Assembly: GCA_016722515.1 (NCBI GenBank)
Contig: JADKJE010000001.1
Span: forward strand, 452,189-516,188
Source: Alphaproteobacteria bacterium
GTDB lineage: Bacteria; Pseudomonadota; Alphaproteobacteria; Rickettsiales; JADKJE01
Length of the DNA: 64,000 bases
Reading direction: 5' to 3'
Shown: one piece after another, positions 843-61,532 of the stretch
Numbering within the stretch: position 1 is the first letter of the stretch
Layout: the number at the start of each line of letters is the position of its first letter
The notes under the pieces: model-generated
Database searches by the model: none
Told to the model about the DNA's origin: nothing
The model's input: only the letters and a program-made list of their open reading frames with translations
Position numbers and translations under genes: made by a program

Positions 843-1961
843 CTAGATTGACTCTGTTTTTTTCTTGCGTACAGCTCGCTTCCTTGGCTTCTCTTCGCCA
901 GCAATTTCAGCATTCTCCAGAGACTCCGTGGACATGGCTGTTAAACTACCGGGAAAAAGATAACCACCCTCTTCGATAGGAAGGCTGAATTCGTCTTCTT
1001 TGGCTTCTTTAGCATGAGACCGTGCTGGTGAATCATTAGCCACGGGCTCGGAAACGGCAGCGACATCTGAAGCAGCGACAGGTTGCGGACGTTTAAGTTT
1101 CTTTGATTTTTCGCGCGCAAGTGAAACAACCTTTGATGCTGATTTAGGCTCCTCAGCGGTAATGTCTTGAGAATAACTCTCATGGCCGGCAACCGTCATG
1201 GCCAATTTAACCAGATGTTCAACCGCATCAAATTCTTCATGGCTTTCTGCGTGTGCGTCACCATGATTATAAGGCGTTTCTTTTCGCTCAATATGCGATG
1301 GCAAAAGGATCAAAGCCTCACATGCCTGGGTCATAATATTGCGGATCGTATCCAGCTGCGAACTTAACCAATATTGCATAGCCAGTGCAGGTATCGCAAT
1401 CACCAATCCAGCAATGGTGGTAATCAGTGCTTGCCAGATACCTTCTGCCAACATCGATGGATCTACTTTATTTCCCGATGCGGCAATAACCGCGAATGCA
1501 TGCACCATGCCAATCACCGTACCAAGCAAACCAAGCAGCGGTGCAGCCTGGGTAACAAACTCCAGTCCTTTCATGTGTGACTGGATCGATTCTAAACTAC
1601 GCTCACCTTGATGCTTAAGCTCAAGTTCAAAGGCTTCCTTGCTAAGATGGCCTTCTTGCTTAAGGGCTAGACCATAGGTAATCAACTGCTCGGCAGGATG
1701 CTTATGCACCGCAGGCAATATATTTTCTACCGATAACGGATCACTATTCCTAAGTGCAGCAATGGCATCATCCAATGAATGTTTACTATATAAACGCATG
1801 GAGATAACTTGATACACTTTATAGATAAAAATAGCGGTCACATAAATAGATAACGCTATCAGCACATAAAAAGTTGTGCCACCAATATCGAATATTCCCG
1901 AAAAACTGGTAGGTAAACCGCGAGACATAATGTATCCTTTCAAAAATCGAAAAACTTTCAA
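843..1961 (-). CDS. MotA/TolQ/ExbB proton-channel family protein with a long charged C-terminal tail
   Basis: 372-aa ORF. It has an N-terminal TM helix plus the paired TM block APLLGLLGTVIGMVHAF...ITTIAGLVIAIPALAMQYW typical of ExbB/TolQ. About 165 aa of acidic/basic low-complexity tail follow. The start may be the internal MSRGLP. Confidence 0.7.
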   Translation of the reverse strand: MKVFRFLKGYIMSRGLPTSFSGIFDIGGTTFYVLIALSIYVTAIFIYKVYQVISMRLYSKHSLDDAIAALRNSDPLSVENILPAVHKHPAEQLITYGLALKQEGHLSKEAFELELKHQGERSLESIQSHMKGLEFVTQAAPLLGLLGTVIGMVHAFAVIAASGNKVDPSMLAEGIWQALITTIAGLVIAIPALAMQYWLSSQLDTIRNIMTQACEALILLPSHIERKETPYNHGDAHAESHEEFDAVEHLVKLAMTVAGHESYSQDITAEEPKSASKVVSLAREKSKKLKRPQPVAASDVAAVSEPVANDSPARSHAKEAKEDEFSLPIEEGGYLFPGSLTAMSTESLENAEIAGEEKPRKRAVRKKKTESI

Positions 1962-2034: not shown

Positions 2035-2907
2035 ATGCCCAACCACGCGCCAACCATTGAATGCTGGATCATTCATTTTGAGGTTCCTGCTGAAGCTTCT
2101 ATGATTGTAAGTGAATGGTTTAACGATGGTATCCTGGTGGATGAAGGTGAAGGTGAGTTTCTTCTGTATGTAGAGTCCGCTCCACAGCACGACGAATGGC
2201 AGCAGCGCTTTATAGAACTTGCCGAAGTCGCGCAGATTGCCAACCGCATCCCATTTGAGATCTTACCGGTACAGGCAGAGGATTGGGTTGCCAAAACGCA
2301 AATCAAAAATTTCTGCCTTGAAATCGGCAGGTTCGTGATTTACGACCCCTTCTATCAAGGTGAGGTTCCCCAAGCCCATATCCCCATTTGCGTAGACGCA
2401 CAATTTAGCTTTGGAGCTGGTGACCATCCTACCACCAAAGGATGCCTGCTTGCCCTAGATGAAATTACCCATCGCGATTTCACTCCCCTATCCATGCTTG
2501 ATATAGGATGCGGTACGGGCATTCTCTCTATCGCTATGGGCAAACTCTGGCATGGGCCCATTTTAGCTTCGGATATTAAATCTACCGCCGTCGATGCCAC
2601 TCGTGAAAACACATCTCTTAATGGACTTACCAACCGCATTTCCTGCATTGAAGCCGATGGGCTTCGCCATCCTTCCTTTAAAGAATATGCACCGTATCAA
2701 TTAGTTTGCGCTAATGTGCTTGCCCCCGTATTAGTTGATATAGCCGCTTCATTGGATACATTAATTGCCCCCAGCTGCACGATTATTTTATCTGGAATCT
2801 TACTGCATCAGGCCGATCAGGTTGTTGCTGCCTATGCGTTGTTGGGTTTTATCGAACATAAGCGCTTCCCCATTGGCGATTGGGTAACCTTATCCTTATC
2901 GCGCTAA
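2035..2907 (+). CDS. prmA: Ribosomal protein L11 methyltransferase
   Basis: 290-aa ORF with FGAGDHPTTKGCL and the SAM-binding block MLDIGCGTGILSIA, as in PrmA. Confidence 0.85.
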   Translation: MPNHAPTIECWIIHFEVPAEASMIVSEWFNDGILVDEGEGEFLLYVESAPQHDEWQQRFIELAEVAQIANRIPFEILPVQAEDWVAKTQIKNFCLEIGRFVIYDPFYQGEVPQAHIPICVDAQFSFGAGDHPTTKGCLLALDEITHRDFTPLSMLDIGCGTGILSIAMGKLWHGPILASDIKSTAVDATRENTSLNGLTNRISCIEADGLRHPSFKEYAPYQLVCANVLAPVLVDIAASLDTLIAPSCTIILSGILLHQADQVVAAYALLGFIEHKRFPIGDWVTLSLSR

Positions 2908-3543
2908 CGCATGGCGTAACGCATACGCCCCGCATACCAATGCCAATGGCAGCAAAAACAAATCCAGCCCCACCAAGCTGACCAGGCCAATCTGGCCTTT
3001 GCTTGCAGCCACACCCAAAACAATGAGCGGAATCTGCAAGGGAAAAACAATTATCGGCAAAAAACGGCTAGCCCTGGATACTCCTAACATAAGGCTTGCT
3101 AAGCCTACCCCCACCAAACTGATCGCAGGCGATCCACACAAAACCGAAAGTGCAATCGATTGCTGCATCGATTCTGGCAACGCCAATAATAGTCCAAACA
3201 CCGGGGTCACCACCACCACCACCACACCGGTTAACAACCAATGGGTCAGGATTTTAAGAAAAATCAAAAAAGCTGGATGGACACCCTGTAGGACCATTTG
3301 TTCTAATACGCCATCCTCATAATCTTTCTCTAACAGATGCGGCAGTGACATCATCGCGGCAAATAAAGTAGTCAACCAGATAATGCCTGGAGCCAGCTCG
3401 GTTAAACTGTGTGATTCAACACCAAAAGCAAATGGAAACAAACTAACCGACACCACCATGAATGCAAGAAAGTAAAACACATTGCCTTGGTGCTTAAACG
3501 CCATCGTCCATTCGCGATGCAATACCATAAGTAATCGTGTCAC
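2896..3543 (-). CDS. ccmB: Heme exporter protein B (cytochrome c maturation)
   Basis: 215-aa polytopic membrane ORF. It overlaps ccmA by 4 nt, which is the CcmA-CcmB arrangement. Confidence 0.8.
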   Translation of the reverse strand: MTRLLMVLHREWTMAFKHQGNVFYFLAFMVVSVSLFPFAFGVESHSLTELAPGIIWLTTLFAAMMSLPHLLEKDYEDGVLEQMVLQGVHPAFLIFLKILTHWLLTGVVVVVVTPVFGLLLALPESMQQSIALSVLCGSPAISLVGVGLASLMLGVSRASRFLPIIVFPLQIPLIVLGVAASKGQIGLVSLVGLDLFLLPLALVCGAYALRHALAR

Positions 3544-4157
3544 ACATCCTCCTTGAAGAGATTCAAATCCACTTCCAATGTATAATCCAGGGACAATGTT
3601 TCATGGCTGGTTAGAATCACAATACCGCCTTCTTTCGTGCGGGTGGTAATTAAGTGGCTGAGCGAACGCTTACCTGCATCATCTAAATGGGTGTAAGGCT
3701 CATCAAGCAACCAAATTTTACTATAACATGCCATTACCCGTGCCAGGGCCACCCGTTTTAACCATCCCATGGAAAGCTGGTGGCACGGTATATTCATTTT
3801 TTCCTGCAAATCAAAATAATGGATTGCTGGTGCAACCATTTGTGGCGACTGGGCCAGCGAGGCAAAAAACTCGATATTCTGTAATACGGTTTGTTCTGGC
3901 GTAATCCCAAGCCGATGGCCAAGATATTGCCGTGATGGGCAATATTCGTCATAAAAATGGAAGATTGAATAATTGCCCCAATAAATATCACCACGATCTG
4001 GCCGGCGCAATCCCGCCATCATCCTGAGCAACGTCGACTTACCGCAGCCATTTGGACCTTTGACCACCACAATAGCGCCATCACCAATAGTGCATCCCCA
4101 TTCATAAAAGAGACGTTTATTATTGCGGACAGCCCATAAATTTTCGCACGTTAGCAT
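3540..4157 (-). CDS. ccmA: Heme ABC exporter ATP-binding protein
   Basis: 205-aa ORF with Walker A GPNGCGKSTLLRMMAG, signature LSMGWLKRVALAR and Walker B IWLLDEP. Confidence 0.85.
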   Translation of the reverse strand: MLTCENLWAVRNNKRLFYEWGCTIGDGAIVVVKGPNGCGKSTLLRMMAGLRRPDRGDIYWGNYSIFHFYDEYCPSRQYLGHRLGITPEQTVLQNIEFFASLAQSPQMVAPAIHYFDLQEKMNIPCHQLSMGWLKRVALARVMACYSKIWLLDEPYTHLDDAGKRSLSHLITTRTKEGGIVILTSHETLSLDYTLEVDLNLFKEDV

Positions 4158-4337
4158 GTTGAGAATTGTGATTAATTTTCAGGTGGTTAGTGTATTCGAA
4201 ATTGTTCCTCGATACCAGCATTTTTGAAAAAAAACATATTTTCGAAAAAAAAACATGTCTTTGTCTCAAATATATGCTATAAGCTTCTCCAGAACGGCTG
4301 CATATGTTTTTAAGGAAGTGTCTTTAAATCCTATAGC

Positions 4338-4436
4338 TAGCCTGTATTAGGGGCCTACTATACTATCTCTCCCCCAAAATGAATCATCCCCCCCGATGCG
4401 ATTCTTCCCAGATATAGTAGGCCTCTAAACAGGCTA
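4338..4436. repeat. Long imperfect inverted repeat (about 24-bp stem, about 50-nt C-rich loop)
   Basis: The left arm TAGCCTGTATTAGGGGCCTACTATA (4338-4362) pairs with the right arm TATAGTAGGCCTCTAAACAGGCTA (4413-4436). The pairing has one bulge and one G.U. The loop contains C5 and C7 runs. Confidence 0.6.
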
Positions 4437-4584
4437 ACATTTTTCTCTTTTCCCTGTCAAATAATATTTAAAAACTCTGTCGTGTCGTTGATCCATATGG
4501 CCGGCTAAAGACGGCTGCGCTAGAGCGTTTTTAATTTAGGTGTAATGATATCGCCCAAAACTCGATCATTTTCATTTTTTCTGT

Positions 4585-4624
4585 CTTCGTCAATGGGACA
4601 CCCGAAACGAGGTTTTAGAGATCG
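4585..4624 (-). repeat. 40-bp dispersed repeat, copy 1 (inverted relative to copy 2 at 53103-53142)
   Basis: The reverse complement, CGATCTCTAAAACCTCGTTTCGGGTGTCCCATTGACGAAG, is identical to 53103-53142. Similarity extends to about 55 bp with 3 mismatches. Confidence 0.8.
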
Positions 4625-4721
4625 TTCAACCTTTTCCTGACTTCTGCCAAATGTGAGGCTGTTTGGTTTTGTTTTTAATAGAATCATTGAATGTGGCAAT
4701 GACAGCATGTTGCCTTCCCCC

Positions 4722-4767
4722 CCCCTCCTTATACATTTAAATCATCTTTTCAATGTATAAGGAGGGG
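4722..4767. repeat. Perfect 15-bp inverted repeat preceded by a C9 homopolymer
   Basis: The arms are CCCCTCCTTATACAT (4722-4736) and ATGTATAAGGAGGGG (4753-4767), separated by a 16-nt loop. A run of 9 C spans 4717-4725. Confidence 0.65.
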
Positions 4768-5012
4768 CTCTTGTTCTTCTAGGATCGCATGTACATCAAA
4801 GGAACATACCAAATCTCCGCAAAACACCCAACTCGAATTTTCTTAATCAATAACATATTGATTTATAATGATCTAAAATTTCAAATCTCAGTAGCCGACA
4901 AAAACAAGAAGACTGGGCCTGTTCTAACCAAATTCCTGCAGTTTATGAACTTAATAGCAGGGTCACGTCTTTGTCCTCATCGACAAAACCTAGAATGAAA
5001 ATACTCTCACCG

Positions 5013-8000
5013 TCAGCCTAACGCACGAGAGTTACGTTGTTGTTGTTGTTTATGCAGCGCCTGAGTAAAACTCTTAGCATCATCTAGGGACATACCAATC
5101 CACCAACCGCCTTTTTCATCCTGAGCAACCGTAAGTGCTTGAATCCCTAATGGCCTTTGCTTGATAGCGTCTAAACATTGGTCCACTTGTTGTTTTGATT
5201 TAAAAAGATAATACCGTTCGCCTGTTTCTACTTTAGTCCACTGAGAAACTGGTACGGTAAGGGGCAATAAGTAGAAACCAACCCTAAACACACTCCCATC
5301 TTCTTTACGTTTCAATTTTATAGGATCCTGAGTCAACTTTTTAGCAATAATATTGTTGATGCACGTCGTGGCTTCTTTACGACTCGAAAAATCATAATAG
5401 CCTTTTTCTCGTCCCGTCTTTTTACTGCTTCCGGTATATTTTGCGACATAGCTAGTTTGATGAGGCACAGGTGCTTTGGATGGCGCCTGTTTTGAGGGAC
5501 TAGGAAGGGATTCCCCTTCTTCAAAGAAAATATCCAAATCATCTTCAGAATTAAGCTCTACACTGATTTCAGTTTGTTCTGATTTCATCTCAGCGTTAAT
5601 AACATTAACTTCGTTAGTTAAAGGCTTCTCAGCTTTAGATTCTACATATTGATTCGTATACACTTTGAGTTGGTTATCTTCAGCTAGTCTAATGGTCTTT
5701 AATTTACATACTTCAGTGAGGAAAGTACCGAATGGATCCTCCGCTTCTTTATATTTATCTTGGATAATCTCTTTCAAATCTACCTTAAAAGCTCTAATTT
5801 TATCAACCCTCAACTCCTTTTCCCCATTTAATCCAAGAACTAAATTCAATACGTTACAGGAAGCCACTTTTTGCTCTTGAGGCACCTGTTCTCCAAAAAC
5901 ATTATCCAACAAATCATCTACTTTTTTATTCAAAGATTTTAAATATTCCCTATATTCAACTTCTATGTTGTTTATAATGCCGTCCTTACTAATACTATTG
6001 TTTTCATTACTAACTTCACATGAAAGTGATCCATTACTAGCAATATTGAACTGTTGCATGACAGTTTGCGACTTGGCAAGACATTGTTCCCTGAATTGCT
6101 TTATATAGCTTTCTTTAGCTTTACTATTTTTGTTTTTTTCTGAATATATTGACTCAAATAAATGAATTAATATCTTCGCATCACCACCACTTAAATATAT
6201 CTTCTGTCTAGTATCCAAAACATTGGGGGATTTTCTGCATTCAAGCCACCCATATAATACAATTGACCGATCTAATAACTCTCTATTTCCTAGATGAAAT
6301 GCTTGCCAAATGCCCAAGCGCAAAGTCGTCTGTGATTTAATTATTTCAACATTTTGGGTGGTGTCAGACCTTAATATATTTGCTATTTTCTCAGCATCAC
6401 TATTAGCCTTTCCTCTTTGTAATAGATCAGGACAACCTTTGGCATAATCTTTTGTAAGCCATTGCCATTGAGGCAATTTTTTGTTACATTGAGATTCAAT
6501 AGTTTCTTTTATCTTCTTATCTAATTTCTTTTTATTCTCTGGTGATAATTGATTTGCAATACTAGGTATAGTTTCCATGTCGATGGTAGGATATTTTGAT
6601 GCAGGCCCAGTCTCGTAAACACGATAATAAAGCAGTGCCAAAGACTCATTTTCTTTTCCTAAAACACCAGTTAATTTATAACTTGTTTGCTGGCACAACG
6701 CCTCTTTGGCCTGCATCCAGACCCATTCACCATTCAGTGTTTGCCCGCCATCAACTTCCACTCCTTTTTGCAAGATTTCAGATATGTCATATACTACAGC
6801 CTCAACCATTTCCAAGCATCTGTAAGTGGCCCATTGGAGATCCATCCCCTTCTTTTTCTTTTCGCTAGCTTGAGTTGCTTTTTTGGTTCTGACAGGAGTG
6901 AGGATCTTTGTAAATTTTAACTTTGACTTCTTAGGCTTTGTAGTTTTTTTTGTCTGTTCGTCATGTAACTCAAACAATTGATTATTCGACATTCCCAATA
7001 AATCTAATTCAGTGTACTTATATTTTGTGGTAAGATCGTTTTTTACGCCAATTCTTTTATTGGAAAATATTTTAAACTTCTCCATATCCTCAGAATTAAT
7101 TGAATATTCACTACCATGAATTGTAATTATATTTTCTACATACTTTCCACCAGCAGAGTATGATTTCCCCGGCATGCTTCCATTAACATTAATACCAGAG
7201 CTATGAGGGTTCTTTCTTCTCTTTTTTCGTGTTGGTTTAACCCGTGCTCTTTCACCCACACTATCTGTAACATCCAACGGTTGCTCAAGTCCATTTATTT
7301 CTAATCTTGAACTTATACCTAAAATAGGAGCAATCTCTTTTTCATTCTCTAGAAATTCTACCCACTTAGATATAACATTGCCATTAACACGACCTTGTAG
7401 CTTATCGCTGTCAATCGTTTTTTTATAAACTACCTGATCACTTTCGCTAATCGGACCAGAGCTTGATTTGACAGGGCTACTATTTTGAGCATCATTCTGA
7501 GCAAAAGTGATTTTTGCCATATCGATAATTTTCCAGGCATCCGTTGGATTTTTTTGAGCCTGAAGTAACGTTCGTGGGCAAGGTATTTGGCTATAAGCAT
7601 AAATTGCAGGATAGCTCAAGATTACATTTCTATGCCCTTTTGCTAAGCAATAACGTTTTAGAACCTTGAGCTGAAACGCAGACTTCACCCTTGGGTTCAT
7701 ATCATGCGTAATTTCCTTAATAAAATCTCTAGCAAATAATTTACAATCAGATTGGCCAAATACCACGTCTTGATTACTGTCTTTTAACGTTTTTGCAACT
7801 TCTTCTAACCGAGTTAAGAAGTCATAGAGATTAGCGATAAGGCCTTTTGATCCATTCTCGCTTTTTTCTTTTAAATACTTTCCAGTTAGACTCTCCCATT
7901 CTATAAAAAATCTGGCTTTTTCCAGGTCTGTTGCATTGCATTCAATAATAACCTTGGCAACATGTTCATACCATAAACCAACGGCACGCTCTATTTTCTC

Positions 8001-22328: not shown

Positions 22329-25300
22329 TCATCCACCCCTCCCTCTGTCTGCTACGTTAGATTTGCTTAAAAGAAGTTGTTCGAGATAACTTCCAGGTTT
22401 AACGTAGTCTATTGCCCTGTTTCCACGGACATCATATTGGCCTATAGCCAGGTCATCATTCTTTGATTCAAGGAGTAATTGAGCGATACGATCATTTCCC
22501 TTTTTTAAAGCACGTATAAGCGGAGTTTTGTTACCTATGGATGTACAAGTATTTAAACGAGCCCCCTTAGCAAGCAACTGCTCACATAAGTCAAAATCTT
22601 CTATTTTGATGGCATAATCCATGGCGGTATAACCTCCAGAATCTTGCAAATTGATGCCGATATCCCCTTTTTGTCCCAGAATTAACATAGCTACCTTAGG
22701 TCGACCATACTTAATTGCCCTCATAAGTGGGCTTTCTCTGCTACCATTTATGATGCTTAAATTAGCTCCTGCGTTTACCAATGAATTGATTATGTCATAA
22801 TTATTTTGCAATACAGCCCAGTTGACGGCCGTATTACCCTCGAAATCTCGCAGATCTAACCCAATATCTTTATTTAAATTTTTAGCATTTATTAAACAAT
22901 TAACGACACCAGCATGTTGCGCGATAACCGCACGCATTAATGGAGTAAAACCTTCGCTATCGATATCAGCTAGTTGCGCTCCCTTGTAAATTAATGATCC
23001 CATTATTGCAGGGTTCTTGGAATATCTAGCTGCGTAATGAACAGCCCTATCTCCCACTGAATCTCGTTCTTCTAGATCATATCCTAATTCAATTAATGTT
23101 TGTGCAGCATTATCACAGCTATGCATACATGCTACCATCAGAGGAGTCATACCATAACTTTCTAAAATTTTATTTAAATTTATGTCTAAGAGTCCAGTTT
23201 CTTTTAATATATTATATTCCTTTATTAGATGAGCATTATTTTCGAATACAGCTAAATAAGCAGCAGCTTCATAATGTCCATACGAAAGCGCCAAACCTGA
23301 GGGCGTTGTATCTTGACCATTTTTAGTCGCCATATTAGCTCCTGCGTTTGCAAGCCTTTGAAGAACCGAGTTACGATTATTCATTGCTGCGTAATGAACG
23401 GCCGTATTTCCCCATGAATCCTTCTCGTCTAGATCACATCCTAGTTTAATTAATTTTCGTGCAATTTTATTACGGTTATATTTACATGCGACTATCAGAG
23501 GAGTCATACCACAACCTTCAAGTCTCCTATTTATATTGAAATTTATTGGCCTATTTCTACAAAGATTAATTGCTTTTATATCTTCTGCGACTACCGCCAA
23601 ATAAACAGCAGCTTCATAATGTCCTCGCATCTGTGCCAGGCATAAAGGTGTTTTACCCGCAACATTTTGAATCTGCGCATCAGCACCAGCAGCAACAAGC
23701 ATATCGATTATGTTGCACCGATTAAAAAATGCAGCATAATGCAAGGCGGTATAGCCCAATTTAGCTTTTGCATTAACTGCTAAATCTCTATGCTCCAGAA
23801 GGATTTCAACGGCATTAAAACAGCTATTAATACATGCGACTATAAGTGGCGAATATCCATCCTCACTCAACTGATAATTTACATCAGCATTTGCTTGTAT
23901 TACCAGATTAACTACATCGCGATTATCGGTTGAAACAGCAAAAAATATAGGTGTGAAACCACCAATCAAGGCATTTACTCCTATTTCCTTTTTGGAATTA
24001 ACAAGACAACGGATCATTCCAATATTTTTACTTTGTATTGCTGCAATTAATGGCGTACTGTTACTTAAGTTGCTTGGTACATCAAGAGGTATATCATGCG
24101 TTATCAATACGTCCATTATATCTATTTTATTTTGCTGGATTGTCAGCGTGAGGCCTTGATGGACAATAAAATCTATTATATGACTAGTTTTTTCGTTGTT
24201 TGCATTCTTGATTGATTGAATCGTATTAGAAAGCAATACACATTGATTTTTGTCAATCAGGTACTTGATAAGCAGTTTAATGAGAGGCTCTTGCAGTGTG
24301 AACTGATTGTCAGACAAAAGTGCCACGATAAAGGCGTTTTGAGAATCGCCTGCCAATTGTTCTAATGTTTTAAAAGAATGATATTTAGAGATTTCAAGGG
24401 CCATGGCATCTGCTGCCATGTGCCAGTACTCTGGTGAGCTATCACTCAGAGTTTGCAATAAGGCTGATTCTGGTTTTTCAAGACAATGGAGATGCAATGC
24501 CAACATAAGCGGTTGGGTTTTTATCCACGATGTTCCCGTTTTTGGATCATAGCCAATAGTGGCATGTTTCTGTGAATTTAAAATAACGTTTTTCAATATG
24601 GAATGCCGATCAGATTCGTTTAGTTTGTTAAAGAATTCTATGAGAATAGCAGCCTCTTTTGATTGAAGAAACATGCCCTTACTTATACCCTCTTGTATTC
24701 TTAAGATGGCCTCATTACACAAACGTTCGAAATGAGTGTTGATATCGGTAACACCCTCAAGAGATGTATATAATACTTGATGCAAATCCATTAAGGGAGT
24801 GAGCCTTCCTATAAAATTATCAAGTATGTCGCTTAGCGGCATAAATGGGGTTTTGCTGTGCCTAGGGTCTGCCAGTTTACAGCAATATTCTTGCCAGCGC
24901 TGCTTAACATTATCTTCAGGCGCAATGTTGTCCTTGCCAAGGACGAGGTACGCTTGCATATCTGGCGTGCAGTAGGTTTCCATTTCTCTACTGAAGGATG
25001 CTATAGCTTTGGTGGTCATCGTCTCATAAAGATTTTGAGCTCCTACTTCACTTTGTTCTCCCTCGATTGACTTATAGACATAATCGAGGATCTGTAATTG
25101 TTGTTCATACGAACATAGCCAGAATTGGTTAATAAGAGCCCGTTTGACTCCTTCACGTAATGGCTCTTCCAGTTGGTCTTTGCTAGAAGCAATGAAAATC
25201 AAGGGAGAGCACTTGATATTGAGGGAAGCAAAGAAGTTATTAAATTGGCCTGAAGCGCAATATCCTCTTTTTTCCCTTATGCCAGCAGCAAGTAATTCCA

Positions 25301-26030
25301 AGCGGGAATGAATGATCTGATGACGATAGGTTTCGGCAGGTTGTTCAGCATTTTCAAGGGCATTAATCAGCTCAATATCACAAGCTGAACGATACATGGG
25401 GTCATACACCAGCGATAAGATTAAAGCCAGTCCTTCATGCAATTTCATTTGGTAATGTACGAGGAATTCCTGATTTAAATGCTCAGGATCACTATATGCT
25501 TCGACCATGTCAGCAATATCTGGTGCGTAATCTTTTACCCATAGTTTAAAATTACCAAATAGAACCTGGCTATTATTAATATATTCAGGGTATAGCACAT
25601 TGAGTTTTGAAATCGATCGTTGAACACATAATGTCGTTATGGGATCATGGGTGTCTTGAATAATATTTCCTCCGCTCCTAACGTTATACTGAAGAAGTAA
25701 TGTTTCAAGCGGTTGGTTATTTGCCTCCTTTGCGAAATCAAGTGCAGACCAGTACTGAATCGTGTCATCCAAGTCTTTATGTCGCAAAACAATTTCTTTA
25801 TTAAACGTAAGTTCCTGCGCTTTTAGCTTTTCAAGGAAATACCGAACCAGATCAACGTTGCCGCTTTTAACACAATGGATGAAATACGGGGCAGATAGGT
25901 TGTCATGCGTCACGAATTGATTGAGGTTATACGTCCTATTGTTCAGCTCTTCTTTGACCGCATCCAATGGCTTCACTGCATCTGTGTTACGAGATGGATT
26001 ACTGTAAATGATCTCAATAAGTAATGGCAT
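22329..26030 (-). CDS. Ankyrin-repeat protein (1233 aa), effector-like
   Basis: The C-terminal roughly 600 aa are a run of ANK repeats (repeated G.TPL..A......V..LL..GA). The N-terminal roughly 630 aa have no motif I recognise. The gene is AT-rich relative to its flanks. Confidence 0.88.
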   Translation of the reverse strand: MPLLIEIIYSNPSRNTDAVKPLDAVKEELNNRTYNLNQFVTHDNLSAPYFIHCVKSGNVDLVRYFLEKLKAQELTFNKEIVLRHKDLDDTIQYWSALDFAKEANNQPLETLLLQYNVRSGGNIIQDTHDPITTLCVQRSISKLNVLYPEYINNSQVLFGNFKLWVKDYAPDIADMVEAYSDPEHLNQEFLVHYQMKLHEGLALILSLVYDPMYRSACDIELINALENAEQPAETYRHQIIHSRLELLAAGIREKRGYCASGQFNNFFASLNIKCSPLIFIASSKDQLEEPLREGVKRALINQFWLCSYEQQLQILDYVYKSIEGEQSEVGAQNLYETMTTKAIASFSREMETYCTPDMQAYLVLGKDNIAPEDNVKQRWQEYCCKLADPRHSKTPFMPLSDILDNFIGRLTPLMDLHQVLYTSLEGVTDINTHFERLCNEAILRIQEGISKGMFLQSKEAAILIEFFNKLNESDRHSILKNVILNSQKHATIGYDPKTGTSWIKTQPLMLALHLHCLEKPESALLQTLSDSSPEYWHMAADAMALEISKYHSFKTLEQLAGDSQNAFIVALLSDNQFTLQEPLIKLLIKYLIDKNQCVLLSNTIQSIKNANNEKTSHIIDFIVHQGLTLTIQQNKIDIMDVLITHDIPLDVPSNLSNSTPLIAAIQSKNIGMIRCLVNSKKEIGVNALIGGFTPIFFAVSTDNRDVVNLVIQANADVNYQLSEDGYSPLIVACINSCFNAVEILLEHRDLAVNAKAKLGYTALHYAAFFNRCNIIDMLVAAGADAQIQNVAGKTPLCLAQMRGHYEAAVYLAVVAEDIKAINLCRNRPINFNINRRLEGCGMTPLIVACKYNRNKIARKLIKLGCDLDEKDSWGNTAVHYAAMNNRNSVLQRLANAGANMATKNGQDTTPSGLALSYGHYEAAAYLAVFENNAHLIKEYNILKETGLLDINLNKILESYGMTPLMVACMHSCDNAAQTLIELGYDLEERDSVGDRAVHYAARYSKNPAIMGSLIYKGAQLADIDSEGFTPLMRAVIAQHAGVVNCLINAKNLNKDIGLDLRDFEGNTAVNWAVLQNNYDIINSLVNAGANLSIINGSRESPLMRAIKYGRPKVAMLILGQKGDIGINLQDSGGYTAMDYAIKIEDFDLCEQLLAKGARLNTCTSIGNKTPLIRALKKGNDRIAQLLLESKNDDLAIGQYDVRGNRAIDYVKPGSYLEQLLLSKSNVADRGRGG

Positions 26031-37424: not shown

Positions 37425-38174
37425 ATGGCTACTCCTACCCCTATTGAATCTTCTCATCTTTCTGCCGTAGCAGGATCCAGTGTTAATCACGGTGCTGCGG
37501 ACATGTCATTTCTAACAATGATTATGAATGCGGATATTATCGTTCAATTCGTGATGTTGCTACTCATCATTAGCTCTATCTGGTCGTGGTCTATTATTTT
37601 CGATAAATATATGCGTTTTCGTACGCTGAAAGATAAAACATCAAAATTTGAAAAAGTTTTCTGGTCAGGCCAACCACTGGAAAATCTTTACGAAAGGGTT
37701 AAAACCTTTGCTGACAATCCCTTTGCTATGGTATTCGTTGCTGCTATGGAAGAATGGAAACGAAACAATCAACCCATGCAGCAGGATTCTGCACTTCGTT
37801 CAGGGGTTAAAGAGCGCATCTTTCGCGCAATGCAGGTGGCTACCAATCGCTCACTTGAACGTATCGAAAAACGGTTGAGCTTTCTGGCAACGGTTGGATC
37901 GTCTGCTACTTTCGTAGGATTGTTTGGTACCGTGTGGGGTATTATGAACAGCTTTAAATCGATTGCTGTCGCCAACAACACAAGTCTGGCAACTGTGGCT
38001 CCTGGTATTGCTGAGGCTTTGTTTGCAACAGCCGTCGGCTTATTTGCAGCTATTCCAGCGGTTGTGTTCTATAATATGTTCAGTAACGAATTAAATAAAT
38101 TTATCATTCGTTTAGAAAATTTTACCCATGAGCTTGGCAGTTTATTGTCTCGTGATATTGACCAAAACCGATAA
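37425..38174 (+). CDS. tolQ: Tol-Pal system protein TolQ
   Basis: 249-aa ORF of the MotA/ExbB/TolQ family (LATVGSSATFVGLFGTVWGIM). It is the first gene of the tolQRAB-pal cluster. Confidence 0.9.
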   Translation: MATPTPIESSHLSAVAGSSVNHGAADMSFLTMIMNADIIVQFVMLLLIISSIWSWSIIFDKYMRFRTLKDKTSKFEKVFWSGQPLENLYERVKTFADNPFAMVFVAAMEEWKRNNQPMQQDSALRSGVKERIFRAMQVATNRSLERIEKRLSFLATVGSSATFVGLFGTVWGIMNSFKSIAVANNTSLATVAPGIAEALFATAVGLFAAIPAVVFYNMFSNELNKFIIRLENFTHELGSLLSRDIDQNR

Positions 38175-38646: not shown

Positions 38647-39564
38647 ATGGAACGCAACCTCATTTATTCGTTATTGCTCCATGCCATTGTGCTTGTGTTT
38701 CTTATCTTCAAACTTCCATTCATTGAAGACAAAAAAGATATTACCGACGCTACAGCCTTCACCGTTGAATTAGTTCCTATTTCACAAATCACTAATCTGC
38801 CAAGTCAACCTACGCCGCCCAAACAGGAAGTGAAAGAAGAAAAAAAGCTCAAAAAAACAGAACCTAAAAAAGCACCACCCAAACCAAAACAGGCTCCTCC
38901 TCCGCCTCCATCGGCCAAACCCGCACCTAAGGAAACCAAGGTTGAGCAACCTAAACCTAAAGAAAAAGCCGAAGTTGCTAAACCTGAAGAAAAAAAGGAA
39001 AAGCCTAAAGAGGAAAAAAAGGAACCACCTAAAAAGGAAACTGAAAATCGTGAAAAGGTCGATAATGAATTCGATAACATGATGAAAAATTACCTTAAGG
39101 ATACCAAGGAACAACAGCCGGATAAAAAGCCAAGCCCTCCTCAGCCACAAGCACAGCCTGCCGCAGATCCCTATGAGCAAATGAAGGCCGCGATTGCTCA
39201 GGATGCTTTAAATCCTTATAATCCTAATATTCCTGTGTCTTTGAGTGAAAAAGATGGTCTCCGTCAGCAGTTTTACGAATGCTGGAAACCACTGGTTGGT
39301 TCAAAGCAAGCAGACTTATTATCTGTCAAAGTAGAAATTATTCTTGATCGAACCGGTTATGTGCGCAATTATAAGGTTCTAACACTATCTCCCCCACCAG
39401 GAGTTGATCCCACCTTGTATGGTGCGGCGCAACAACGTGCGATTATGGCTATTCAGAATGACGCCTGTCGTAAGTTACGCCAAATTCCATCACAAGAAAA
39501 ATACGGTGGTGATAATGGCTGGTGGAGAATTGAGCTAAACTTTGACCACTCTATATATTATTAA
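38647..39564 (+). CDS. tolA: TolA-like protein
   Basis: 305-aa ORF with an N-terminal TM, a Pro/Lys/Glu-rich spacer and a C-terminal globular domain. It sits between tolR and tolB. Confidence 0.75.
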   Translation: MERNLIYSLLLHAIVLVFLIFKLPFIEDKKDITDATAFTVELVPISQITNLPSQPTPPKQEVKEEKKLKKTEPKKAPPKPKQAPPPPPSAKPAPKETKVEQPKPKEKAEVAKPEEKKEKPKEEKKEPPKKETENREKVDNEFDNMMKNYLKDTKEQQPDKKPSPPQPQAQPAADPYEQMKAAIAQDALNPYNPNIPVSLSEKDGLRQQFYECWKPLVGSKQADLLSVKVEIILDRTGYVRNYKVLTLSPPPGVDPTLYGAAQQRAIMAIQNDACRKLRQIPSQEKYGGDNGWWRIELNFDHSIYY

Positions 39565-41204: not shown

Positions 41205-41714
41205 ATGCGCACATCAAAGGTGCTTTTACCAATCCTTGCAAGCGTTCTTCTCGTTGCTTGTACCTCAACCAAAAAAACTGATTCAGTTGGAGCAAGTTCA
41301 CCAAATGGTAGCGGAAACACTGGCGATTCGTCATCTGTTTTGGCTCCTTATCCTGGCGATAAAGCTGAATTAGGCAAAGACTTGCAAGACCGCGTATTTT
41401 TCGGTTTTAATTCTTCTGATTTAGACAGCACTTCTACTGCTATTTTAGAAAACCAAGCTCGTTGGTTGTCTGCTAACAAAAGCAAAAAAGTTGTTGTTGA
41501 AGGACATGCTGACGAACGCGGAACCCGGGAATTCAACCTTGCTCTTGGTGAGCGTCGTGCCAATGCGGTTAAAGAATACTTAACTGGTCATGGTGTTGAT
41601 TCTTCACGCGTAAAAACTATCTCTTATGGTAAAGAACGTCCTGCTGTTCAAGGTTCTAGCGAAGAATCTTGGGCTCAAAACCGCCGTTCTGTCTTAATCG
41701 AAGAGCAAAAATAG
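41205..41714 (+). CDS. pal: Peptidoglycan-associated lipoprotein Pal
   Basis: 169-aa ORF with the lipobox LLVAC and an OmpA_C domain (VVVEGHADERGTREFNLALGERRA). Confidence 0.9.
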   Translation: MRTSKVLLPILASVLLVACTSTKKTDSVGASSPNGSGNTGDSSSVLAPYPGDKAELGKDLQDRVFFGFNSSDLDSTSTAILENQARWLSANKSKKVVVEGHADERGTREFNLALGERRANAVKEYLTGHGVDSSRVKTISYGKERPAVQGSSEESWAQNRRSVLIEEQK

Positions 41715-41797: not shown

Positions 41798-42406
41798 ATG
41801 CTAAAAAAACTATGTTTGGTTTTCATGTTGTTGCTTACATTTTCTGCTTGTAAGTATGATGATGCAGAAGTAACGACAACTAATGTTCCGGGCATAGGCC
41901 GCCGAGGTCCCGAATCAGTTTCTGGTGTAGACCAGTATGCTGGGGTGGATGACGGTGGTGATTTAGCAAACCTTAACTCTGACGGTAACTCTGACGGGGC
42001 TAATACTGGGGATGACAACGGCAGTGGCGATGGAGCCGGAGCCGGAACAGAAACCCAGGATTATTTTGCCTCACATATTGGCGACCGGATATTCTTTGCT
42101 CTAGATAGCAGCAACATTTCTTCCGAAGGCCAGGCGATCTTGAATCGCCAGGTAGGATACCTGAAGCAGCATCCGAATATTAAAGTAACGATTGAAGGAC
42201 ACGCTGATGAACGTGGAACCCGTGAATATAACCTTGCACTTGGTGACCGCCGTTCGATCTCAATTAAAAACTACCTAACAGCACAAGGTATAGGTGAAAA
42301 CCGTATACAAACCATCAGTTATGGTAAAGAAAAGCCAGTGAAATTTTCCTCTGATGATACTTCATATGGCGAAAACCGCCGTGGTGTAACTGTTATAAGC
42401 AAATAA
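41798..42406 (+). CDS. Second Pal-like OmpA-family lipoprotein
   Basis: 202-aa ORF with the lipobox TFSAC, a Gly/Asp-rich linker and an OmpA_C domain (VTIEGHADERGTREYNLALGDRRS). Confidence 0.85.
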   Translation: MLKKLCLVFMLLLTFSACKYDDAEVTTTNVPGIGRRGPESVSGVDQYAGVDDGGDLANLNSDGNSDGANTGDDNGSGDGAGAGTETQDYFASHIGDRIFFALDSSNISSEGQAILNRQVGYLKQHPNIKVTIEGHADERGTREYNLALGDRRSISIKNYLTAQGIGENRIQTISYGKEKPVKFSSDDTSYGENRRGVTVISK

Positions 42407-55985: not shown

Positions 55986-57158
55986 ATGAAAGACATAGCG
56001 CACTATAACGATTTGATCAAATCATTTATAAAAAGTGAAATATATATTTGCGTCTCAGACGCCTTTGATTGGGAAAACTCTAAAAAAATAAAAGAGAAAA
56101 AATTACCAATAGACCATACCTATGATTATTACACGTATCAAACCAAGCGTGGACCCGTAGAGTTTCGACGTATTTTTAAACAACGGAATGAAACGATCAT
56201 AAACCTGGACACTCTCTTTATACGTTTACAAGAAAAAAGTCAGCAAGCTTTCTCAAAAGAACTGATAACATGTCTACAGCAACAAATACTTTCATCCTTA
56301 TATCCCGACCACCGACTGCACATGCACAATAGCTCGCATACATCTCACATTGTAATCGAGCCAAATTGGAACCTTAAGTCCCTTTATCTTTCTCCACGTT
56401 CTCTTGCGGCAGAGTCCAAAATTAAAAGTGATTCTCAACAAAGAAAATTATTACGTGACGTCTCTATCAATAATATTATTCACCGAACGGTTAGAGAATC
56501 TAAGAAAGGAAGCTTTTCAGAATTTACGGGTATGTTGGATAGAAATTTTGAGAACGATACTGAACTTAACCTTTCAATGGCCTTAACAGCGTGTTCATTG
56601 CCCCCCACGCTACTCAATGAAATCAATATCGCTCATGATGCCTATTGCAAGCAAGTGCACACATTGCCTTATCCGCATTTTACCGGAGATACGGCCAAGG
56701 GGGACATCGCTGAGCGTGAAATAGCCTTATCGCGAAGTTTCTGTAATCATTTTGAGAACAGCTTACTAGAAACAGGATTTTTTAATAAGCAAGAGCAACT
56801 TGGATTATTGTTTAACCACTTAAGGATAACACACCCTTTTGCCTTTGTTAATGCAGAGCAAATATGTGGAATAACAACGACGATGCACAATTCCGCCATC
56901 GAATATTTATATAATGAAAAAACGTATATATCGCTTGTAGACCACGAGTTCCATGAATATTTATTAAAAATGGAACACACAAACTTAACGCTCCTCTGTG
57001 AATATGCAACCAGTGGACTAGCCCCCAACCGCATCGCTGATAAGCACCAATCGTTGACCGAATTGCTCAGCGACAAGAAGCGACAATTATCGCTGATTTC
57101 CGAATCATGGCAACACCGGGTTTCAAAGGGTGATGCTGAAGTTGTTAGGACTGCCTAA
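55986..57158 (+). CDS. Orphan hypothetical protein (390 aa) immediately upstream of cas3
   Basis: Uninterrupted ORF in AT-rich DNA. I see no signal peptide or TM and recognise no family. There is an isolated HPFAFVN string (nt 56832-56852). Confidence 0.7.
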   Translation: MKDIAHYNDLIKSFIKSEIYICVSDAFDWENSKKIKEKKLPIDHTYDYYTYQTKRGPVEFRRIFKQRNETIINLDTLFIRLQEKSQQAFSKELITCLQQQILSSLYPDHRLHMHNSSHTSHIVIEPNWNLKSLYLSPRSLAAESKIKSDSQQRKLLRDVSINNIIHRTVRESKKGSFSEFTGMLDRNFENDTELNLSMALTACSLPPTLLNEINIAHDAYCKQVHTLPYPHFTGDTAKGDIAEREIALSRSFCNHFENSLLETGFFNKQEQLGLLFNHLRITHPFAFVNAEQICGITTTMHNSAIEYLYNEKTYISLVDHEFHEYLLKMEHTNLTLLCEYATSGLAPNRIADKHQSLTELLSDKKRQLSLISESWQHRVSKGDAEVVRTA

Positions 57159-57407
57159 TAGGCCAATGCTGATAAACGCTGACATACATTTTTACATTCA
57201 TACCCTTGGATTTATGATATCCAGCGAATGAATTTTTATAGTCGTTCTATTCTGGTATTTCTGGCATAAGTTTCCTTAACATTAGGATTAATGGCCACTA
57301 TGCAAAGCTCAGAGCCTATCGATCGGCATAAACTCATTATGTCACCAAGCTCCACATTCAGAAATAATTCCTTGGCCAAAGATTTGAATCTGACATCTCA
57401 ATTAAAT

Positions 57408-57437
57408 CAATTCACAACTTATTTAAGTTGTGAATTG
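57408..57437. promoter_or_regulatory. Perfect 13-bp palindrome about 80 bp upstream of cas3
   Basis: The arms CAATTCACAACTT (57408-57420) and AAGTTGTGAATTG (57425-57437) have a 4-nt spacer. It is a candidate operator or hairpin. Confidence 0.3.
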
Positions 57438-57517
57438 AAAATTAAAAGAATTCGCTATATTAATTTATTTTAATAATCTCGCGTCGCAATTTGCATTTAT
57501 AATAAGAGGGGATTTTA

Positions 57518-59809
57518 ATGAAACAACATTGCGTCATTTCGCATAGGGATACTGCTGGTAATGACCGTTTACTTGAAGATCACCTAAAAGAAGTAGCAAG
57601 ACGTACAATGAAAAATGCTGATAAATTTTCCAGTGGTGACTGGGGCTATCTTGCTGGATTATGGCATGACTTGGGGAAATATAATGCAGAATTTCAAGAT
57701 TACATACGAACTGTTTCCGCTATTGACACTGAGGATAGTGAAAATGCACATTTAGAAGTGCATGAAGACAAAAACAAAAGGCGAGGTCCAGATCATTCTA
57801 CTGCTGGCGCATTACACGCATTAAGGCGTTTTAAACAAGTCTCAATGAGTGATATTCCTGGACGAATTCTTGCTTATATAATTGCGGGGCATCATGCAGG
57901 CTTGGCTGATTGGGATCCGGATGAAACAGGTAACAGAGCCTTAAGTAACAGACTTCAAAAAGACATTCATATTCAAAAAACAATGGAGGCCAAACCCGAT
58001 GAAACTATTTTAAATGCACCTCTTCCCAGGAGTCACGCGCCTAGAAATGCAAGTCATTCACTTTGGATACGGATGTTATTTTCATGTCTTGTAGATGCGG
58101 ACTTCCTGGACACAGAAAATTTTCTAACACCTGTTAACTCAAAAAAACGCAATCAATATCCCAACCTCAATGCCATTAAAACCACTTTCGACAATTACAT
58201 GGGATTAATGTCTGAAAAATTAAAACAGAAAAATCTTGCCGATACCCAAGTTAATAGTTCTAGAGCAACTATTCTTAAGATGTGCCGCCAGAAATCTGTA
58301 TTACCCCCAGGACATTTTTCTTTAACGGTTCCTACAGGTGGAGGAAAAACCCTAGCCAGCCTTGGATTTGCACTGGAACACGCTCATTACCATAAAAAGG
58401 AACGCATCATCTACGTTATCCCGTATACTAGCATAACCGAACAAACAGCCCAAGTATTCCGGGATGTATGCGAACCACTGGGTGACATTATCGTCGAACA
58501 TCACAGTAATTTTAATGACGAATATGAGCAAGAAAAGCAAAACAGTAAATCACGCCTAGCCACAGAAAATTGGGATGCTCCGATTATCGTTACGACAACG
58601 GTACAATTCTTTGAATCGCTGTTTGCGGCACGCACTAGCCGGGTACGCAAACTCCATAACATCTGTAACAGCATCGTGATATTAGATGAAGTTCAATTAC
58701 TTCCAGCAGAATTCTTAAATCCTATTTGTGATATAATGAACCAATTAAAAGACATTTATAGCGTCACCTTTGTTCTATCCACGGCGACGCAACCCGTTCT
58801 TGAAAATCTTAATTTGCCTGATTACGAAAGAAAGTTTAAAGGATTAACAAACGTCAGAGAAATCATTGATAATCCCGATTTTTTCTATAAAACACTACAA
58901 CGTGTTTCTATCCAACTTCCTAATGTTAATAAACGATATGAGTGGCCTGAGCTGGCTGAAGAACTCCAACAATATAAACAAGTTCTCTGTATTGTCAGTA
59001 AACGTGAAGATTGCCGTAACTTGCATCACTTAATGCCTGAAGGCACTATCCATCTCTCCGCCTTGATGTGTGCTGAACATCGTAGAGAAGTTATCAACAA
59101 TATCAAGATACGAATATCCAATAATGAATCCATCAAAGTCATAAGCACTCAACTCGTAGAAGCTGGCGTAGATTTTGATTTCCCAGTTGTTTATCGATCA
59201 ATGGCTGGACTTGACTCAATTGCACAGGCTGCAGGTCGCTGTAATCGCGAAGGTAAATTGGGTTATGCTGGTGGTAAAGTAGTAATCTTTCATGCGCCAC
59301 AAGATCCTCCTAAGGGTATACTCAAAAAGGCAGCCCAAGCTGCCGAACATGCACTACGTATTTATGATAACGCCCCCCTAAGCCCCAATGCATTTCACAC
59401 TTTCTTCGAATATTTCTATTCTCAAGTACCCTCATTAGATAAAGCCAATATCATAACTCGAATGGAGAATAACCCGTCCCTTACATTCCCATTCCGTACT
59501 ATCGCTCAAGAATTTTCATTAATTGACGATGGCTTTAATCTTCCCGTAGTCGTGCGTTATGGGAAAAGTACCCACCGTATTGAACAATTACTAAACGGCA
59601 TGAAAGCTGAACGATGGCTATGGAGAGAGTTACAGCGATTTAGCGTTAATATTCCTAGATCCGTACATGCAGAGTTGATTAAAAACAATGAGATAAAAGA
59701 GGTAATGGGGGGATTATTTGTTCAAATACGTCCTGAATTATATGATCCCGTGTTAGGATTTTGTGAAAAAAAACAGATGGAATATGCCGCAAATAATCTA
59801 ATAGGCTAA
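57518..59809 (+). CDS. cas3: CRISPR-associated helicase/nuclease Cas3 (HD fused to SF2 helicase)
   Basis: 763-aa ORF with the HD motifs LWHDLGKY and IIAGHHAGL. The helicase motifs are I VPTGGGKTLAS, II ILDEVQ and VI QAAGRCNREG. cas5c and cas8c lie downstream. Confidence 0.92.
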   Translation: MKQHCVISHRDTAGNDRLLEDHLKEVARRTMKNADKFSSGDWGYLAGLWHDLGKYNAEFQDYIRTVSAIDTEDSENAHLEVHEDKNKRRGPDHSTAGALHALRRFKQVSMSDIPGRILAYIIAGHHAGLADWDPDETGNRALSNRLQKDIHIQKTMEAKPDETILNAPLPRSHAPRNASHSLWIRMLFSCLVDADFLDTENFLTPVNSKKRNQYPNLNAIKTTFDNYMGLMSEKLKQKNLADTQVNSSRATILKMCRQKSVLPPGHFSLTVPTGGGKTLASLGFALEHAHYHKKERIIYVIPYTSITEQTAQVFRDVCEPLGDIIVEHHSNFNDEYEQEKQNSKSRLATENWDAPIIVTTTVQFFESLFAARTSRVRKLHNICNSIVILDEVQLLPAEFLNPICDIMNQLKDIYSVTFVLSTATQPVLENLNLPDYERKFKGLTNVREIIDNPDFFYKTLQRVSIQLPNVNKRYEWPELAEELQQYKQVLCIVSKREDCRNLHHLMPEGTIHLSALMCAEHRREVINNIKIRISNNESIKVISTQLVEAGVDFDFPVVYRSMAGLDSIAQAAGRCNREGKLGYAGGKVVIFHAPQDPPKGILKKAAQAAEHALRIYDNAPLSPNAFHTFFEYFYSQVPSLDKANIITRMENNPSLTFPFRTIAQEFSLIDDGFNLPVVVRYGKSTHRIEQLLNGMKAERWLWRELQRFSVNIPRSVHAELIKNNEIKEVMGGLFVQIRPELYDPVLGFCEKKQMEYAANNLIG

Positions 59810-59926
59810 ATTGGCGAAAGATAATTTTAATAGTAGCGAAGCGCTTATTATTATAATATATATAGTGTTTTTTTATTGACTCTTATTGAAACATTGATAA
59901 AGGATTTTCAATCCTAGGATGAATTG

Positions 59927-61413: not shown

Positions 61414-61493
61414 AAAGAAATCCCCTCCACAAGGATTTTGACTATAGCGTGGATTTTAACACAGTCGCGAAACGGATTGTTTTTTCTTAAAAT

Positions 61494-61516
61494 GCCTCTG
61501 TACTAAGTACAGAGGC
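61494..61516 (+). promoter_or_regulatory. Hairpin immediately upstream of the cas5c ribosome-binding site
   Basis: GCCTCTGTAC-TAA-GTACAGAGGC forms a 10-bp perfect stem. It ends 5 nt before AGGAG (61522-61526) and 16 nt before the cas5c ATG. Confidence 0.3.
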
Positions 61517-61532
61517 TCACCAGGAGATTTGT

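Follow-up and report, generated by a model that had tools for sequence, protein, structure and literature searches.

BIG, a 1965-residue orphan protein encoded in an AT-rich segment between ccmAB and ligA of an alphaproteobacterial metagenome-assembled genome

The stretch of DNA analyzed here, referred to as the window, comprises 64,000 nucleotides of a 1,038,801-bp contig from the metagenome-assembled genome (MAG) of an Alphaproteobacteria bacterium. It contains a single intact open reading frame (ORF) with an ATG start for which the name BIG is used for both the gene and its product; the public entry (MBL0318071.1, locus tag IPP74_02020) carries the description "MAG: hypothetical protein." BIG has ccmB and ccmA on one side and ligA on the other (Table 1). 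As the stop frequency at its base composition is approximately 0.07 per codon (our own estimate), chance is excluded as an explanation for a frame of 1965 open codons. The GC contents at the three codon positions (0.459, 0.312, and 0.297) follow the coding-type order of GC1 > GC2 > GC3, and BIG is a genuine gene. Of the 44 window ORFs with 150 aa or more, BIG has the lowest overall GC content (z = -3.0); the other 43 average 44.2% (standard deviation [sd], 2.8%). At third codon positions, the value of 0.297 compares with 0.403 (sd, 0.052) in the other 43 ORFs and is also low, though not uniquely so (z = -2.05). The deviation is confined to a segment from 4.2 to 11.5 kb, within which the GC content is 0.33 to 0.38 compared with 0.45 to 0.53 in the flanks, a drop of approximately 9 points with sharp borders. 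A reading made from the letters of the sequence alone (here termed the original prediction) had described a lone 5.9-kb ORF in AT-rich DNA and had called for a comparison of GC and GC3 with the flanks; the ORF is present as described, and the comparison gave the z-scores above.

Table 1. Features of the BIG locus and accessory features elsewhere in the window
Feature	Coordinates	Strand	Remarks
prmA	2035-2907	+	
ccmB	2896-3543	-	
ccmA	3540-4157	-	
Noncoding spacer	4158-5012	.	BIG stop to ccmA start; 855 bp, 38% GC
Left arm of inverted pair	4159-4181	-	TGAAAATTAATCACAATTCTCAA; 23 nt, 1 nt upstream of ccmA ATG
BIG coding sequence	5013-10910	-	1965 aa, 35.6% GC
BIG residues 1837-1965	5016-5402	-	C-terminal alpha/beta domain (modeled), final helix and basic polar tail
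BIG residues 1755-1836	5403-5648	-	Acidic stretch (..SEDDLDIFFEEGE..), then Pro/Ser-rich linker
BIG residues 1657-1754	5649-5942	-	Cassette of ~100 aa; sole part with a homolog (P0122 residues 75-175)
BIG residues 1356-1656	5943-6845	-	Middle region; no relatives detected
BIG residues 1206-1355	6846-7295	-	Basic polar linker of low hydrophobicity; RKKRRK at 1228-1233, +13 window at 1319-1358
BIG residues 1-1205	7296-10910	-	Long N-terminal region; no family match, transmembrane segment, or signal peptide
70-aa ORF (MSRTKSKSHF...)	10894-11106	-	17-nt overlap with BIG start, in another frame
Divergent BIG/ligA upstream region	10911-11557	.	33% GC over 10911-11425
Right arm of inverted pair	11397-11419	+	TGAAAATTATTCACGATCCTTAA; 23 nt, 6 nt upstream of ligA-ORF ATG at 11426
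NAD-dependent ligA ORF	11426-13648	+	
1233-aa ankyrin protein	22329-26030	-	At least 8 Ank_2 stretches, in the C-terminal half; 38.8% GC
390-aa low-GC ORF	55986-57158		Precedes cas genes; no family match
cas3	57518-59809		Type I-C locus (55986-63946)
Truncated DDE transposase	60102-60770	-	Interrupts the CRISPR-Cas locus
cas5	61533-62195		Type I-C locus
cas8c/csd1	62192-63946		Type I-C locus

Upstream of BIG, the noncoding DNA extends for 515 bp if the ligA ORF is counted from its first ATG, or for 647 bp if the annotated ligA start (11558, deduced from the 696-aa public LigA entry) is used; the 300 bp previously given for this AT-rich promoter region is incorrect. The 44 codons of the ligA ORF that lie 5' of the annotated start (11426-11557) form an unconserved extension, with the matches of relatives beginning at approximately residues 45 to 68. 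The frame of BIG is open only from 10946, and loss of a single A in the A5 run (10934-10938) would join the short ORF overlapping its start to BIG, giving a protein of approximately 2035 aa. This 70-aa ORF has no family match in PADLOC or PHROGs and is weakly coding-like, as its codon log-odds score is +0.07 per codon, with a minimum of 0.127 for in-frame windows of BIG and a maximum of -0.024 for off-frame windows. Two explanations are possible: the ORF is a small gene coupled to BIG, or it encodes the true N terminus of BIG, severed through a frameshift of 1 nt in either the A5 run or a C4 run. Hence, the coupled upstream ORF of the original prediction exists, but the two-gene module built on it is no better a fit than a 1-nt frameshift or assembly error.

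On the other side of BIG, the spacer contains no coding-like frame; all six frames score negative, with 12 to 23 stops each, and no ORF exceeds 69 aa. Its RNA folds better than shuffled sequences (z = -7.3, from 20 shuffles only), and it includes the strongest local hairpin of the window (4722-4767; 20-bp stem and 6-nt loop), which is flanked by a G-run instead of a U-tract, as well as a second long hairpin (4347-4428) that is also among the strongest. The structured spacer that had been predicted was thereby confirmed in both length and folding. Neither hairpin has a second copy elsewhere in the window or a match in Rfam, which returned nothing meaningful at the gathering threshold for the window or at an E-value threshold for the spacers on both sides of BIG, and no tRNA or tmRNA was found. 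The AT-rich segment is bracketed exactly by two 23-nt arms that are inverted and identical at 19 of 23 positions. There is no target-site duplication, and AT-rich DNA of 8.5 kb should contain several 19/23 matches by chance alone (our own estimate). Judged by sequence, the pair could be a chance occurrence, a regulatory site common to both ends, or an insertion border. No integrase, transposase, tRNA target, or bordering direct repeats were identified in the AT-rich segment.

In the BIG protein, Lys, Leu, Glu, Ile, Ser, and Asn are abundant (K, 10.7%; E, 8.4%; N, 5.8%). There is no transmembrane segment (the maximum Kyte-Doolittle value in a 19-residue window is 1.2), the N terminus is not hydrophobic, and the tail ...HKQQQQRNSRALG has a net charge of +3 and a Kyte-Doolittle value of -1.57 over its last 15 residues. 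In these respects (a Lys/Asn/Glu-rich composition, no signal peptide or transmembrane segment, and a basic tail), the original prediction was accurate. It had also listed motifs as absent, which held for Walker A, HExxH, GxSxG, and DEAD motifs but not for DxD and HD, of which there are 5 and 2 dipeptides, respectively, a chance-level number. The scan gave no Walker A, HExxH, GxSxG, DEAD, Fic, or RTX motif, with 0 regex matches to the GGxGxD RTX nonapeptide repeats of type I secretion system (T1SS) substrates, and a hunt for CX5R, WxxxE, LIR, and other motifs returned chance-level matches only. No Dot/Icm E-block lies near the C terminus, the only EExxE being at residue 970. The RKKRRK run (shuffle p = 0.018) and the +13 window (p = 0.048) are marginally beyond chance and resemble nuclear localization signals (NLSs), the former fitting the classical consensus K-K/R-X-K/R (PMC7819608). 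The number of K[KR]x[KR] matches in this Lys-rich protein is not above chance (p = 0.14), nor is the acidic cluster at residues 1761-1800 significant (p = 0.25). Within the window, no paralogs of BIG or long internal repeats were found. A short internal duplication was identified in the C-terminal domain, where residues 1838-1859 (YYDFSSRKEATTCINNIIAKKL) correspond to residues 1900-1921 (YYLFKSKQQVDQCLDAIKQRPL) with a shuffle p of ~5e-4, calculated post hoc.

The structure modeling that had been proposed for BIG gave an unusable N-terminal model and a C-terminal model without a significant fold match. A single-sequence AlphaFold2 model of residues 1-1200 was nearly all helix according to DSSP but unreliable, with a predicted local distance difference test score (pLDDT) of 36.5. 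The model of residues 1810-1965, made without an alignment (pLDDT, 56; predicted template modeling score, 0.38), weakly suggests a tandem beta-alpha-beta-beta unit, with a pLDDT below 50 for residues 1810-1836. Using Foldseek with this model, the best E values were 0.028 against the PDB and 0.007 against a viral library, with template modeling (TM) scores of no more than 0.36. The top nonsignificant matches were LAGLIDADG/WhiA and the MotA C-terminal domain, which are nucleic-acid-binding double alpha/beta folds, with endonucleases among them. The C-terminal repeats were also considered as AP2- or SPOR-like, but neither Pfam nor PDB supported this, and the idea was dropped.

The endonucleases among these matches, together with a discrete C-terminal domain of ~130 aa that follows an acidic/Pro-rich linker, are in keeping with a polymorphic toxin or antibacterial effector, in which a long delivery region carries a small variable toxin domain behind a Pro-rich linker. 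BIG resembles Rhs/CDI/LXG-type toxins in its long N-terminal region, linker, and small C-terminal domain, but it has no Rhs/YD, PAAR, LXG, hemagglutinin, VENN, or other trafficking domain and matches no toxin family. Downstream, where an immunity gene would be sought, the six negative spacer frames leave no coding-like ORF. PADLOC returned nothing, and neither type VI secretion system nor contact-dependent inhibition (CDI) genes are present in the window. We consider a role of this kind very improbable.

Approximately 15 billion public proteins were searched in total for relatives of BIG. In Pfam, no family exceeded the cutoff for the whole protein or for ten windows of ~250 aa at E <= 10, which covers the windowed search suggested with the original prediction. 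No match for BIG was obtained with NCBIfam, PADLOC (0 families), or PHROGs, and PDB sequences matched neither the whole protein, its C-terminal 136 aa, nor a profile of the cassette described below. Similarly, there was no match for BIG by tblastn against plasmids and phages, none in JGI metagenome contigs (searched with the BIG protein and with the cassette alignment), and none in IMG/VR viral contigs. When 5.8 billion proteins were searched with a word index, only BIG itself was retrieved. An exhaustive phmmer search against 1.84 billion representatives, for which the query was residues 766-1965, returned BIG and a single other protein, P0122. BIG had been called an orphan, with homology to a characterized family named as evidence to the contrary; no such family was found in Pfam, NCBIfam, PADLOC, PHROGs, or PDB, and the protein has no relative by any search used except for one cassette in P0122.

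P0122 (MBL0319456.1, IPP74_09265) is a 723-aa protein with weak C-terminal ankyrin repeats that is encoded on the 441,507-bp contig of the same MAG. The cassette aligns between the two proteins (BIG residues 1657-1754 and P0122 residues 75-175) with 39% identity and a library-wide E value of 8.7e-10. A profile of P0122 and the cassette found P0122 and one further protein only, P0123 (locus L083, 761-2800; Logan SRR1027651), which at 52% identity is the closest homolog of P0122. P0123 lacks the cassette, with ~97 residues missing between well-aligned flanks. The presence of the cassette in two genes of one genome and its absence from P0123 are best read as intragenomic module shuffling. P0123 also has a duplicated 'MAYGMDMYRILHDLP'-like segment, and its contig has a GC content of 33.9%; its occurrence shows that a relative of BIG's lineage is present in sample SRR1027651.

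Whereas the accessory protein P0122 has a 52% identical homolog in another sample, BIG has none. A search with LigA found thousands of relatives, the best of which was 58% identical among the 5.8 billion proteins, with GTDB species representatives at 45 to 53%. The orphan status of BIG is therefore partly a sampling effect of an isolated lineage, as a fast-evolving protein would be invisible at such distances. With core genes flanking BIG on the 1.04-Mb contig and the cassette also present in IPP74_09265, BIG is native to the genome and not a chimeric insert. The same two points, as well as the coding-type codon-position pattern, bear on whether BIG is an assembly artifact or a decaying, functionless gene. 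Such an origin would be in keeping with a sequence taken from a MAG, a possible 5' frameshift, and a lack of conservation data, but an open frame of 5.9 kb at 35.6% GC needs selection or a very recent origin to survive, and we consider it scarcely credible.

Synteny was compared across 80 ligA loci of GTDB species representatives (<=53% identity) and five loci of closer metagenomic LigA relatives. The ccmAB genes were beside ligA in 0 of the 80 and 0 of the five, and none of these loci contained a homolog of BIG; a conserved syntenic copy in relatives, the other finding named beforehand as speaking against the original prediction, was thus not encountered in the 80 plus five loci. As no examined relative has ccmAB next to ligA, the borders of an insertion were not delimited. 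The closest LigA relative (58% identity) is that of locus L084 (Logan DRR438525), where the interval between ligA and prmA (12294-15987) encodes an IS1595 transposase (39% GC), a U-box protein (44%), and a protein with a U-box and pentapeptide repeats (41%), flanked by ligA at 53% GC and prmA at 54% GC. The neighborhood of ligA and prmA is therefore taken to be a slot for accessory, low-GC, eukaryote-like cargo in this clade. BIG is likewise AT-shifted accessory cargo next to ligA and near prmA, but the proteins are unrelated (no tblastn match), the orientation of ligA relative to prmA differs, and a transposase is found only in L084. At a further locus (L088, 12107-15706; JGI 3300045996, a MAG labeled Rickettsiaceae), another large orphan, an unrelated 1199-aa protein without domains, abuts ligA in convergent orientation.

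An insertion sequence (IS) in the equivalent slot of a relative, along with an IS remnant in this genome (60102-60770), would be in keeping with BIG being recent foreign cargo, brought in between ccmA and ligA from the eukaryotic host, a mobile element, or a bacterium not yet sampled, with the 23-nt pair marking its ends. The sharp drop in GC, the placement of the inverted pair exactly at both borders, a structured noncoding spacer that looks like a degraded element, and a Lys/Asn/Ile-rich composition resembling that of AT-rich protist proteins can be read in the same way; being a statement on origin, this is compatible with an effector function. However, the segment carries no integrase, transposase, or tRNA, no target-site duplication lies beside the arms, whose similarity is within what chance would supply, and no search returned a donor homolog. 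Other accessory genes of the genome are AT-rich too, and GC3 of BIG is only 2 sd low. Because a paralogous module resides elsewhere in the same genome, long residence or a local origin is preferred over recent import, which appears unlikely. Of the fast-evolving or acquired effector originally predicted, the effector part is circumstantially favored, as set out below, and horizontal acquisition is not supported, with no donor, mobility gene, tRNA, or direct repeats identified.

It is possible, if rather unlikely, that BIG is specific to its lineage but remains in the cytoplasm unsecreted, for example as a large helical scaffold, a regulator, or a protein associated with the nucleoid or cytoskeleton. 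The linker and C-terminal domain would then bind the cell's own nucleic acid or structures. The setting among core chromosomal genes, the missing signal peptide and transmembrane segment, the lack of secretion genes nearby, the predicted helical content, and the basic clusters are all consistent with this, as are weak top fold matches to nucleic-acid-binding proteins (LAGLIDADG/WhiA and the MotA C-terminal domain). These fold matches are not significant, however (E >= 0.007; TM score <= 0.36). Proteins with core roles are normally conserved within an order, but BIG has no homolog among ~15 billion proteins, whereas LigA finds thousands. It also has the lowest GC content of the window, and its sole relative is the cassette in an ankyrin protein.

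We favor, with a probability of roughly 0.45, the reading in which BIG, as a giant soluble protein that is modular and specific to its lineage, is exported independently of Sec by an alphaproteobacterium that is probably host associated and acts in a eukaryotic host. The host-associated lifestyle, secretion, action in the host cell, and any activity in the nucleus or in binding nucleic acids are steps that we infer. BIG would be exported without a Sec signal, probably via a C-terminal signal read by a type IV secretion system (T4SS) or possibly a T1SS, and inside the host cell it may serve as a large helical scaffold. Its parts may have been assembled through intragenomic shuffling, of which the ~100-aa cassette would be an indication, with the basic linker and the small C-terminal alpha/beta domain as candidate targeting and binding elements. 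This effector reading is favored circumstantially because there are large ankyrin proteins in the genome, one of which has the cassette in common with BIG, and because of the eukaryote-like gene set beside ligA in L084. That BIG matches no defense, phage, toxin, or housekeeping family (Pfam, NCBIfam, PADLOC, and PHROGs) was also counted in its favor. Positively charged C termini reportedly serve as VirB/D4 transport signals, an observation said to go back to Vergunst et al. in 2005. The charged, hydrophilic tail of BIG is compatible in sequence with C-terminal signals of the VirB/D4 type, a permissive and weak criterion.

A second giant gene with effector-like features lies 11 kb from BIG and is the second most AT-rich ORF of the window. 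It encodes the 1233-aa ankyrin protein, in which the N-terminal ~600 aa lack a domain and the tail is Arg/Gly (..ADRGRGG), and both ankyrin proteins (this one and P0122) end in Arg/Gly-rich polar tails. The MAG comprises ~1.5 Mb in two contigs with ~43% GC and encodes ankyrin-rich proteins, features that resemble those of protist-associated alphaproteobacteria, and the organism is probably associated with protists. For comparison, a Paracaedibacter-like symbiont of Bodo saltans has a genome of 1.39 Mb and 40.6% GC (PMC8163844).

Several points weigh against an exported effector. No secretion-system gene is present within the 64-kb window, the part of the MAG covered by this check. BIG itself has no eukaryote-like domain, either as a whole or in the ten Pfam windows at E <= 10. 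The tail criterion is permissive, the C terminus has no Dot/Icm E-block nearby, and the NLS-like features are barely beyond chance (p = 0.14 for K[KR]x[KR] and 0.018 for the basic run). The host association is deduced only from the ankyrin/U-box content and the assembly size, and with tol-pal, ccm, isc, copper resistance, and CRISPR-Cas genes all retained, the genome is not that of a strongly reduced obligate symbiont. BIG also has no ortholog with which conservation or selection could be compared.

Among known systems, BIG is most readily set beside the large lineage-restricted effectors that intracellular bacteria translocate, which include Anaplasma AnkA and Orientia Ank proteins (exported via T4SS/T1SS) and the Dot/Icm substrates of Legionella and Coxiella. 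Like these, it is very large, soluble, modular, and devoid of a Sec signal and transmembrane segments, its AT content exceeds that of core genes, its taxonomic range is narrow, its C terminus is hydrophilic and positively charged, and its genome encodes big ankyrin proteins, one with the BIG cassette (PMC7819608). Unlike them, BIG lacks ankyrin repeats and any other eukaryote-like domain, as well as an E-block and a catalytic motif, and no secretion-system gene accompanies it in the window. NLS-bearing T4SS ankyrin effectors also exist (PMC7819608).

A more specific proposal, which we consider highly unlikely, is that BIG is a nucleus-directed effector in which the duplicated beta-alpha-beta-beta domain forms a new nucleic-acid- or chromatin-binding fold and the cassette is a portable host-target-binding or secretion-adaptor module that would be exchanged among the effectors of this lineage. 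Among nucleomodulins, TAL effectors have DNA-binding repeats, NLSs, and an acidic activation domain. BIG shows some likeness to these in its RKKRRK run, second basic window, acidic/hydrophobic stretch (DDLDIFFEE), and separate small C-terminal domain, but it lacks TAL-type repeats, its NLS statistics are marginal, and the structure comparisons confirmed no DNA-binding fold.

Host-associated bacteria that are poorly sampled commonly encode giant orphan proteins, and BIG belongs among the effector-like proteins of this kind and does not represent a new type of system. If the effector reading is true, the effectors of a deep, uncultured lineage of alphaproteobacteria gain a 220-kDa protein that is wholly unrelated to others, together with a small cassette that is shuffled, and such lineages bear on the evolution of host association in Rickettsiales- and Holosporales-like bacteria. 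BIG is a candidate for structure determination and localization assays. As it stands, it neither opens nor settles a long-standing question, and so far it offers no new mechanism.

The remainder of the window is core chromosome, including folD, hda, iscRS-hscBA, tol-pal, tilS, ftsH, glmM, thiD, corC, and copA/copB. It is broken by three accessory features, namely, the giant ankyrin gene, the type I-C CRISPR-Cas locus, and the truncated DDE transposase; no CRISPR array lies inside the window. Two genes of the MotA/TolQ/ExbB family were identified. The first (843-1961, minus strand) is unusually long at 372 aa and falls far under the TolQ/ExbB equivalog cutoffs, and the second (37425-38174, plus strand) is located in the tol-pal cluster with two OmpA-family genes (41205-41714 and 41798-42406). 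The same cluster contains an unannotated 305-aa ORF (38647-39564), within which an imperfect tandem repeat (38950-39040; approximately 2 to 3 copies of 24 to 27 nt) codes for Lys, Glu, and Pro, and the ORF is probably a TolA-like linker.

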